24,694 nucleotides of DNA, from NCBI GenBank assembly GCA_027340875.1, contig DAIENX010000077.1, positions 1 through 24,694 on the forward strand. The letters run 5' to 3'. The notes under the pieces were generated by a model, which did no database searches, was not told the origin of the DNA, and saw nothing but the letters and a program-made list of their open reading frames with translations. Position numbers and translations under genes: made by a program. The number at the start of each line of letters is the position of its first letter. The stretch's first letter is position 1. Of the stretch, positions 16,071-21,970 are shown piece after piece. The stretch is from Elusimicrobiota bacterium. Its GTDB lineage: Bacteria > Elusimicrobiota > Elusimicrobia > Elusimicrobiales > UBA9959.

Positions 16071-16202
16071 GTGCCGTGGCGGGGCAATGGCGCAGAGGGT
16101 ACTCGCGCAGGGCGAGGCTTGCGCAAGCGCCGAGCCCGAGCGGTAGCACGCGCACGGTGTGCGCGATAGCGTGCCCGAAGCGTCATTGCCCCGGCATGGC
16201 GC
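16071..16202 (+). repeat. Structured interspersed element, copy 1 (between ptsI and lepA)
   Basis: 23-bp outer stem 16071-16093/16180-16202 (three G-U/T pairs, one mismatch). It encloses GCTT-gcgc-AAGC (16117-16128) and CGCGCAC-GGT-GTGCGCG (16149-16165). Core aligns with 21555-21636. Confidence 0.8.
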
Positions 16203-19980: not shown

Positions 19981-20727
19981 ATGGAGACGGTTCACAGCGG
20001 GTCTGCGAGGGCCCTGGTGGAGTTGCAGAAGAGGGACACGGCTATAGCCGCGCTGAAGGCCAGGATCGCCGGAGTGCCGGTAAGGCTCAAGGCCGTCAAT
20101 GATGCCTTCGAGGCGAAGAAAGCGGCCATGAGCGCCGCCAGAGAGACCCTGATGGCGCTGCAGTCCAGGAAAAAGGACTCGGAACTCCGGATAGCCGAGG
20201 CGGAAGAGGGGATACGCAAGCACCAGCGGGAGCTCAACATGGTGAAGGACAACGACGCCTTCAAGGCCCTGCTGAAGGAGATCGATAACGACAAGGCCGC
20301 CAAGGACGAGCTGGAGACCGGAGTGCTCGAGCTGCTCGAGGAGATAGACAAAGCCTCCGTGAAGGACAAGGCCGAGCAGGCCGAGGTGGCCGTGGTAGCG
20401 GCGCAGCGCGACAAGGAAGCCGCGGCGCTCGAGGCCGAAGGCCGCGAGGCGGCCGGGATGCTCTCCGAGGCGGAAGCCGGCAGGGCCGGGGTGGCCGCCG
20501 GCATCGAAGCCGACCTTCTGGAGCGCTACGACGCGCTGCGGGCCAGCCGGGCGAACCTCGCGGTAGCGGAGGTGCACGCGGACCAGGCCACCGGCAAGCT
20601 CTCCTGCGGAGGCTGCCATATGGGCCTGACGCCGCAGAAGGCGCTGGATGTAAAGAAGCACGATACCTTCGCCGTCTGTCCGGAATGCAGGCGCTGGATG
20701 TACCTCGAAGCGACGATAAAAGGGTAG
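19981..20727 (+). CDS. Coiled-coil protein with C4-type zinc ribbon (DUF164/COG1579-like)
   Basis: Long charged helical region, then CGGCHM...CPECRR. This family often lies upstream of rnpB. Confidence 0.88.
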   Translation: METVHSGSARALVELQKRDTAIAALKARIAGVPVRLKAVNDAFEAKKAAMSAARETLMALQSRKKDSELRIAEAEEGIRKHQRELNMVKDNDAFKALLKEIDNDKAAKDELETGVLELLEEIDKASVKDKAEQAEVAVVAAQRDKEAAALEAEGREAAGMLSEAEAGRAGVAAGIEADLLERYDALRASRANLAVAEVHADQATGKLSCGGCHMGLTPQKALDVKKHDTFAVCPECRRWMYLEATIKG

Positions 20728-20742
20728 CTGATGGGTTTCGCC

Positions 20743-20767
20743 GGGAATTTTTTCGATGAAAATTCCC
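20743..20767. terminator. Possible terminator-like hairpin after the zinc-ribbon gene
   Basis: GGGAATTTT-ttcgatg-AAAATTCCC is a perfect 9-bp inverted repeat, but has no downstream U-tract. Confidence 0.3.
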
Positions 20768-20768
20768 C

Positions 20769-20931
20769 CGCGCATAGCGCGGGCGCTGGAGGCGCGGTAT
20801 ACTGGCCAATGGCCGTGCCGTATCAGGCGCAATGCGCTTCAGACGGCCACCCTCTCGGGCGCTGCGCGCATAGCGCTTGGCCCTTAGGGCAATGCCCATG
20901 CCGCATCAGGAGCTATGCTCTTCAGGCGGCC
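20769..20931. repeat. Two-unit structured direct repeat (45-nt units at 20804-20848 and 20887-20931, each preceded by CGCGCATAGCGC)
   Basis: Units are 37/45 identical, and 6 of the 8 differences form 3 compensatory pairs. The 12-mer CGCGCATAGCGC occurs at 20769-20780 and 20865-20876. Confidence 0.85.
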
Positions 20932-20976
20932 GACCCGCTGAAGCGGGGAACCCTGCAAACAGGGTTCGGGATAAAT

Positions 20977-21351
20977 TTTCAGACCGCGGACGGAGGGCCG
21001 CTCTTCCCGAAAGGGAGGGGAGGAACTTCCGAACTTCACAGGGCAGGGTGCCGGTTCAAAGCCGCTAAGCGGCCATAGGCCGGGAGGCGGGGGCCATATC
21101 CCCCGTCGACGGACAGCGCCACAGAGAACATACCGCCCGCAAGGGTAAGGGTGAAAAGGTGCGGTAAGAGCGCACCGCGCGCCGGGCGACCGGCGCGGCA
21201 GGGCAAGCCCCTCCTGAAGCAAGGCCAAAATCGCGCCATGGACTGCCCGTCCGCCCTTCGGGGCAGCGCGGAGTGGGCCGCACTAGATAAATGGTCCTCC
21301 AGATGCCGCAAGGCATTGGACAGAATTCGGGGTACAGTCCGCGGTCTGAAA
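20977..21351 (+). ncRNA. rnpB: RNase P RNA, bacterial type A, atypical
   Basis: P1 20977-20991/21337-21351; P2 20992-21000/21292-21300. Conserved blocks GAGGAAnnUCC, CACAGAGAACAUACCGCC, GGUAAGGGUGAAAAGGUGCGGUAAGAGCGCACC, AGCAAGGCCAAA, CUAGAUAAAUG, ACAGAAUUCGG. Confidence 0.96.
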
Positions 21352-21697: not shown

Positions 21698-21970
21698 ATG
21701 GATTCACTGGCGGCGAAGATACCGGAGATAAAGTACTCGTCCGACGCGGGGGAGATACCGTGGGACGACGCCGTGGTCTGGAGCCAGATGCCGCGGGTGG
21801 GGCCCCGCGTATACGAGTGGATAGAGGGTTCGCATATCCGCTACGTTTCATGGAGCAACGGCCTGGTCAACATCCTGCCGGACAATAGTTCCATCCTCAG
21901 CTCGCATTGCCAGTGCATAGTGCTTCCTTCCGCTTTCGTCTGGGTCGGCAAGAACGTCAAGGTGGGCTGA
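21698..21970 (+). CDS. Hypothetical protein, 90 aa
   Basis: ATG at 21698 preceded by AAGGGG; codon style matches neighbouring genes (MDSLAAKIPEIKYSSD...). The upstream extension in the ORF track runs through repeat copy 3. Confidence 0.75.
   Translation: MDSLAAKIPEIKYSSDAGEIPWDDAVVWSQMPRVGPRVYEWIEGSHIRYVSWSNGLVNILPDNSSILSSHCQCIVLPSAFVWVGKNVKVG

Follow-up and report, generated by a model that had tools for sequence, protein, structure and literature searches.

Two copies of a short direct repeat stand upstream of rnpB, the gene for RNase P RNA, in a 24,694-nt stretch of DNA from an Elusimicrobiota bacterium (the window). They differ from one another in ways that keep their predicted stems paired, raising the question of whether this is a noncoding RNA or a regulatory motif maintained next to its neighbour, or a DNA element that came to rest there. 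The original prediction, made from the sequence of the window, pointed to a REP-like or ncRNA family. The first of these alternatives has held up: the unit is a gene-less, non-autonomous mobile element, REP-like in size and fold, and its siting upstream of rnpB is incidental. The second has not, as it is probably not an RNA gene.

Architecture of the units

The 45-nt direct repeat predicted ahead of rnpB is present in both places (Table 1), but the repeated core is not the whole unit: one extra 5′ base (20803 and 20886, respectively) brings the true length to 46 nt. A comparison of the units shows that their cores differ at eight positions, namely the three compensatory pairs already proposed (3/9, 18/40 and 25/33) plus the unpaired positions 12 and 28. 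Folding likewise returns the expected architecture for both units—a 4-bp triloop hairpin followed by a stem with an internal loop and another triloop—on both strands, whether folded as RNA or as DNA (z from about −1.6 to −3.1), and a covariance model run on the window gives unit 1 an E value of 4e-16 and unit 2 one of 1e-14. In the GTG motif at the base of the long hairpin, the T and G are invariant in the own-genome alignment of units (that is, of the genome to which the window belongs); we regard this conserved GTG as a candidate guide or recognition motif for the 46-nt unit.

Table 1. Positions in the window of the two units, their hairpins and the surrounding features.
Feature	Position	Strand	Description
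Upstream gene	19981–20727	+	CT398-like coiled coil plus C4 zinc ribbon; 5′ of the units
Host repeat 'B'	20741–20974	+	About 140 nt without the two units; five or six hairpins
Unit 1	20803–20848	+	46-nt mobile element, T plus 45-nt core (core 20804–20848)
Hairpin 1, unit 1	20804–20814	+	4-bp stem, C-[A/T]AT-G loop
GTG at 5′ foot of long hairpin, unit 1	20815–20817	+	Conserved in 157 of 164 distinct copies
Long hairpin, unit 1	20817–20847	+	5-bp stem, 5 × 5 internal loop, 4-bp stem, triloop
Unit 2	20886–20931	+	46-nt element, 45-nt core 20887–20931
Hairpin 1, unit 2	20887–20897	+	As hairpin 1 of unit 1
Long hairpin, unit 2	20900–20930	+	As long hairpin of unit 1
rnpB	20982–21350	+	RNase P RNA class A; Rfam match

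Unit 1 lies in a longer repeat, host repeat B, which it enters at TAC|ACC, giving junctions C|T on the left and C|A on the right. The left junction of unit 2 is atypical, reading T|A and not C|W (W being A or T). Because an identical unit 2 allele with identical oddities occurs in a related genome (G020; L025/L272), unit 2 is an older insertion. The GCGC-ATA-GCGC hairpins that had been assigned to the front of each unit do exist, but they belong to the ∼140-nt host repeat, since this repeat occurs unit-free in relatives.

Among relatives without an intervening gene or insert, most have the CT398-like zinc-ribbon gene 5–21 nt from rnpB. The gap holds an extra gene in 10 of 28 relatives (L259–L262, L273, L274, L276, L277, L279 and L282), which we take to be RNase HI-like by its motif, and another inverted repeat in two (L261 and L284); these extra genes and inverted repeats mark the gap as a hot spot. 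On the other side of rnpB follows a 90-codon gene without a Pfam match (21698–21970), whose position is conserved genus-wide.

Conservation of the fold

The predicted conservation of the structure is borne out by 44 distinct own-genome copies, in which 97.9% of cells are paired and double changes occur at nine of 15 pairs. None of 500 shuffles and no slid structure matched the pairing score of these copies, kinship being ignored in this comparison. Among 123 distinct copies, mostly from relatives and at loci partly chosen with a pattern in which bases of the loop and the stem foot are fixed, pair 25/33 occurs as A-T (47), C-G (42) and G-C (32), pair 3/9 as C-G (62) and G-C (55), and pair 18/40 as T-A (80) and C-G (35).

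The internal loop is less uniform than the invariant ATCAG/TTCAG of the original prediction and reads A(T/A)CAR opposite NTCAR. Position 20 is an A in 41 of 148 copies, which disrupts a T-A pair and, on the other strand, the proposed tandem G-A pairs (CUGAA/CUGAU) alike. As a consequence, neither tandem G-A pairs nor a K-turn can be required, and this reading is rejected. C21 stands opposite C37 in 121 of 123 copies, and this near-invariant C·C suggests base-specific recognition by a protein. The other strand of the unit has A-N-A triloops, a stable type of DNA loop.

Evidence for mobility

That the 46-nt unit is mobile is near certain. Its mobility, its length and its C|A/C|T junction rule are additions to the original prediction. 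Excision of exactly 46 nt leaves a sequence that also occurs at another place in the genome (at least 22 of 24 bases matched) for 29 of 49 copies, five of these being tandem self-matches; removing 45 nt from the same 49 copies restores four sites, and removing 47 nt none.

Orthologous rnpB loci form a series that leads from an empty site via the host repeat only and the host repeat with unit 2 to the host repeat with both units. Of 30 such loci examined, two were unreadable, and neither unit nor host repeat is present at 25 of the 28 readable sites; these include G023, which is the closest relative and has a 19-nt gap at the rnpB site. The other readable sites are one with the host repeat only, one with the host repeat and unit 2, and the window with all three. 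Host repeat B occupies the same rnpB site in five genomes (G024, G022, G020, G004 and that of the window), including two, beyond the 30 loci, whose host repeat is unit-free in one case and carries a unit at a different site and in the opposite orientation in the other. The site of unit 1 is empty in L007, L014 and L025, and the alignment has 46-column gaps at both units. A unit also splits a Bro-N gene in G086: compared with an intact plasmid homolog, the gene portion upstream of the unit extends to residue 177 and the portion downstream of it begins at residue 178–179. The break thus falls exactly at 177/178, demonstrating an insertion without loss or duplication.

The flanks of the unit follow a simple rule. 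For this comparison, sites from the own genome and its relatives were de-replicated to 151 independent ones, tandem-internal junctions were removed and the search pattern left the junction flanks unfixed. The base before the unit is a C at 139 of these sites (background 0.30) and the base after it an A at 89 and a T at 39 (128 of 151); metagenome loci have a C before the unit in 106 and A or T after it in 98 of 109 cases. Given that the unit itself begins with T or A and ends with C, both junctions read C|W with one shared C, beyond which there is no target duplication.

Units also occur in tandem. Eighteen of 28 neighbouring units closer than 120 nt are spaced at exactly 46 nt, head-to-tail; arrays contain up to four units, and L593 has a tandem of a 24-nt piece bounded by an internal C|A and the right end. 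Further units are inserted in the host repeat, in a CGACA-N7-TGTCG palindrome and in one another. At the window locus, four contig sets contained no 46-nt excision joint; one contig of a co-occurring relative has the gene joined to rnpB without an insert, and a contig from another run has a head-to-tail unit junction.

Copy number and genomic context

A profile search of the own genome gave 70 matches, 49 of them full length, compared with only two (E 0.09 and 0.16) in the reversed genome used as a control; the covariance model counts 59 copies. With the same model, the unit is found in all 43 genomes of the genus, at 1 to 70 copies each, and in 70 of 80 genomes of the family (10 of 13 genera). 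Among 151 genomes drawn from the phylum, nine contain it, only three of which lie outside the family, one of them marginal, and matching genome records are nearly all Elusimicrobiota. One unit (L155) is located close to the edge of a short contig that bears an Omnitrophota label, a case of mis-binning or transfer. The exact pattern had no match in viral contigs.

In the own genome, 48 of the 49 full-length copies lie outside predicted genes, next to unrelated housekeeping and accessory genes. A transposase beside other copies, a point that the original prediction had proposed to check, was not seen among 139 flanking proteins scanned, and genes flanked on both sides by units are ordinary genes. 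Relative to genes, 13 units are sense, 15 antisense, 10 convergent and 7 divergent, with three at contig edges and one possibly in a reading frame; compared with the majority gene strand, the split is 21 versus 16, and a crude proxy reveals no replication-strand bias.

These counts bear on the reading that the unit is a functional ncRNA or a cis-regulatory motif under host selection, for example in rnpB processing, which we consider highly improbable. Such a role would be in keeping with the strong covariation, the position adjoining rnpB and the fact that some copies supply a stop codon or may stabilise transcripts. Yet the empty orthologous sites, including that of the closest relative, speak against it, as do the random neighbours and orientation and the wide range of copy numbers within the genus. 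There is no promoter or terminator consensus at 20650–21050 and no Rfam match besides rnpB in either gathering or E-value mode, and orientation independent of transcription argues against an RNA gene. In the RNA runs, the share of the window's words was at most 0.07 in any run.

Five units sit exactly at stop codons and supply a new TAG (G000 C48:832, C55:3099, C56:1355, C60:1144 and C99:443), one of them at rplR within a ribosomal protein operon. Contig C85 carries the empty version of the rplR site. G000, the own-genome bin, has a contamination of 5.5% and contains near-duplicate contigs (C73 with C108 and C56 with C85), which suggest that the bin includes a second strain.

Other repeats as landing sites

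Host repeat B, present in seven copies in the own genome, is either a mobile repeat or an RNA; one copy lies beside a tRNA gene on C73. Twelve unit copies sit in the loop of the CACGGTGTG element (CACACCGTG family). The two families are distinct, as had been proposed, and the units use the CACGGTGTG element as a landing site. The CACACCGTG family is itself a multi-hairpin repeat of roughly 130–150 nt with heavy covariation and, by a rough pattern, ∼53 intergenic copies; those in the window are at 16073–16200 (−), 21395 (+) and 21611 (−), the latter two facing each other downstream of rnpB. A third module of ∼21 nt around GTCGCTTCGCTCCA is present or absent within the CACACCGTG family and other repeats (e.g. 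on C1, C21, C44, C65 and C81) and is apparently a clean insertion after C as well.

Most TIRYT and ISCR transposase genes (L075–L099, L285–L324 and L457–L469) have upstream of them the CGACA-N7-TGTCG palindrome followed by a −10-like box, and the palindrome looks like a shared operator. It has 19 intergenic pattern matches in the own genome (C11, C68, C69, C79 and C80), two of which stem from another repeat.

How the unit may move

The best explanation, to which we assign a probability of roughly two in three, is that the 46-nt element is non-autonomous and moved as single-stranded DNA by an HUH-type enzyme acting in trans. Cleavage of single-stranded DNA occurs at C|T with the TnpA-REP enzymes of E. 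coli and S. maltophilia, and at either C|T or C|A with that of Marinomonas; models of TnpA-REP action comprise excision of a circle, its re-insertion elsewhere and tandem amplification (PMC8266576, PMC3333891). The junctions, tandems and nesting of the unit fit this chemistry step by step, so that HUH single-strand transposition is favoured. An HUH-type enzyme would bind the folded unit, cut C|W at both ends through a 5′-phosphotyrosine and release a 46-nt single-stranded circle with a C|W junction, which would then be joined into another C|W within transiently single-stranded DNA. A circle re-inserting at its own junction would create head-to-tail tandems, and the use of internal C|A sites would create nested units and arrays of the 24-nt sub-unit. 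Pairing would persist through selective recognition and spread of the folded copies, not through any need of the host for an RNA.

It is unlikely that the unit moves by a DNA route without an HUH enzyme, be it a recombinase with a minimal C/CW core (IS110-like or of the host) or nick-and-repair template switching at hairpins, where hairpin-templated correction could yield some compensatory changes without selection. The single C common to both ends would suit such a route, as would the placement of A-starting units mostly at C|A (41 of 52), which comes close to a 2-nt core, the strong preference for other hairpins as targets and the lack of a linked HUH gene at the Y1 and unit loci. T-starting units, however, occur at C|A (43) as often as at C|T (33), meaning that no 2-nt core is duplicated. 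Moreover, the own genome has no IS110 match, Xer-type integrases number only two at E<1e-20, no clear unit lies near 30 integrase loci, and slippage on a 1-nt repeat would hardly give exact 46-nt tandems at many loci.

It is also improbable that the unit moves via an RNA which a reverse transcriptase turns back into DNA, a route that was reportedly proposed for cyanobacterial small dispersed repeats. On the written strand, the RNA of the two units folds with z −2.6 and −3.1 and G-T outnumbers A-C by 21 to 10 (p 0.07), but this excess comes from the own genome (9 versus 1) and is gone in relatives (12 versus 9). Insertion without duplication and the presence of copies in transcribed operons are also consistent with an RNA intermediate, against which stand the even distribution over sense and antisense orientation and an own genome without a reverse transcriptase match.

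The search for an enzyme

If an HUH-type enzyme does move the unit, its identity can be named only tentatively: a resident ISCR/IS91-family transposase is one possible candidate, a RAYT/TIRYT-type Y1 protein acting from elsewhere has a similarly slender chance, and another HUH protein seems doubtful. None of the 70 Y1 loci examined, among 113 PF01797 matches listed in the genus, has a unit; conversely, none of 311 unit loci has a Y1 gene, and unit copy number does not follow Y1 count (rho 0.01 in 43 genomes). The Y1 genes of the genus are mostly of the TIRYT type with terminal repeats of their own, and the own genome (92% complete) has one Y1 gene, the TIRYT-like L031 (G000:C111:16347). L031 is flanked by AAAAGGTACC-W-GGTACCTTTT palindromes, which represent a separate small repeat family. 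IS200-type TnpA occurs in only four of 80 family genomes. At one such locus, L072 (G008:C20), a perfect hairpin encloses the tnpA start codon, and the first 13 bases of this hairpin are identical to the unit's left end; the ends of this IS are dissimilar to the unit, and the hairpin reflects either chance or the origin of hairpin 1.

The ISCR/IS91-family element encodes a protein of ∼480 aa with Y2_Tnp and Zn_Tnp_IS91 domains and occurs, often fragmented, in 46 of the 80 genomes of the family. At 10 of 65 distinct loci of this element, units lie within it or at its ends, compared with 2 of 130 control loci (p 4e-4, kin not being independent), the controls being Y1 (0 of 70), DDE (1 of 30) and integrase loci (1 weak of 30); against DDE loci alone, the enrichment is not significant (10/65 versus 1/30, p 0.16). 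With unit-selected loci added, units occupy more than 10 different positions in the ISCR element, in both orientations. Of the 70 unit-positive genomes, 45 have the element, as does one of the 10 unit-free genomes; within the genus the correlation between element and unit is rho 0.35, or 0.24 (p 0.12) when contig number is allowed for.

In the own bin, ISCR survives only as an ori-like remnant. ISCR follows a target rule other than C|W, with R-W-T behind its ori end (T at +3 in 22 of 26 flanks), and the unit is unlike the ISCR ori end, its profile matching ISCR loci solely as inserted copies. Decayed ISCR copies are neutral ground for insertion, and the link between ISCR and the unit may reflect a mobiliser or merely a source of single-stranded target DNA. 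On a tentative view, the two-hairpin 46-nt DNA may be the complete minimal substrate of an ISCR/IS91 rolling-circle transposase in trans, chosen by structure and C|W rather than by ori/ter homology.

Other searches of the own genome returned no match to DUF559 or ISCR, as for IS110 and reverse transcriptase; the Y2 search was blank as well but weak, since the Y2 control matched nowhere. GIY-YIG proteins were rejected as movers, with the matches consisting of two near-identical small genes plus UvrC, without units on both sides. Also rejected was an AAA_14/DUF4143 gene found near units at nine loci, partly in one shared cassette, which had no tblastn match in the own genome.

Relation to known repeat families

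The closest likeness is to REP, BIME and REPIN sequences with their TnpA-REP (RAYT) enzymes, especially those of group 2, with a bulged long hairpin, and the Marinomonas TnpA-Mb system. They share with the unit a size of 20–50 nt, extragenic and dispersed location, an imperfect hairpin whose mismatches are conserved, junctions at C|T and C|A (read from the sequence in the case of the unit), tandem amplification and nesting in palindromes (PMC8266576, PMC3333891, PMC3116915, PMC6006769). In contrast to REPs, the unit lacks a GT[AG]G tag, its foot reading N-GTG then C; it is a single sharp-edged 46-mer with two hairpins where a REPIN is an inverted doublet; and no REPtron surrounds it in 70 Y1 loci and 311 unit loci. 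The unit thus behaves as a TnpA-REP-mobilised REP would, yet the missing tag, REPtron and doublet place it outside the REP class.

Several other families resemble it in part. IS91/ISCR elements share the lack of target duplication and, in the mechanism proposed here, single-stranded circles and HUH chemistry, and units concentrate in the resident ISCR-type element; IS91, however, needed ∼80–90 nt at each end in the cited assay (bioRxiv 10.1101/2025.01.24.634351). A derivation from IS91/ISCR by its ends is rejected because there is no ori-end homology and the target rule is another. Like IS200/IS605 elements, the unit has hairpin-marked ends, precise loss and no duplication (PMC8266576, PMC6006769), but a derivative of these is rejected given the lack of a 4–5-nt target (only C|W is conserved) and the rarity of TnpA in the family. 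CGTC-tagged REPs and TIRYT-linked repeats are palindromic and without a dedicated transposase, and some REPs lie within other palindromes (PMC3733652); the unit has no CGTC tag, and TIRYT genes here carry their own terminal repeats and never the unit. A DDE-mobilised MITE is rejected, there being neither terminal inverted repeats nor a target duplication of at least 2 nt, and so is an Rfam ncRNA family, with no match above the gathering score.

Cyanobacterial small dispersed repeats (SDR) are said to be very small, structured, site-preferring mobile repeats of 21–27 nt, and we know of no enzyme for them. Compared by description, the unit resembles SDR in these properties and differs in being about twice their size, in having merely C|W as its target and in belonging to a different phylum. 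The SDR work (Elhai et al. 2008, Genome Res 18:1484) is cited in PMC5861425. No prior description of the 46-nt family, including among Elusimicrobia repetitive extragenic repeats, was found in a literature search that covered mainly openly accessible papers.

Outlook

The spread of REP-sized repeats is poorly understood, particularly where a family has no RAYT gene. The present family offers exact ends, a two-base junction rule, an empty-to-filled orthologous series and a short list of resident HUH enzymes, and its natural variants, numbering in the hundreds, show which structure is required. It also illustrates that a short intergenic motif with strong covariation can be selfish DNA instead of an RNA gene. 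If the ISCR/IS91 reading were true, it would name an enzyme for RAYT-less nested mini-elements and provide a scarless insertion module of less than 50 nt.
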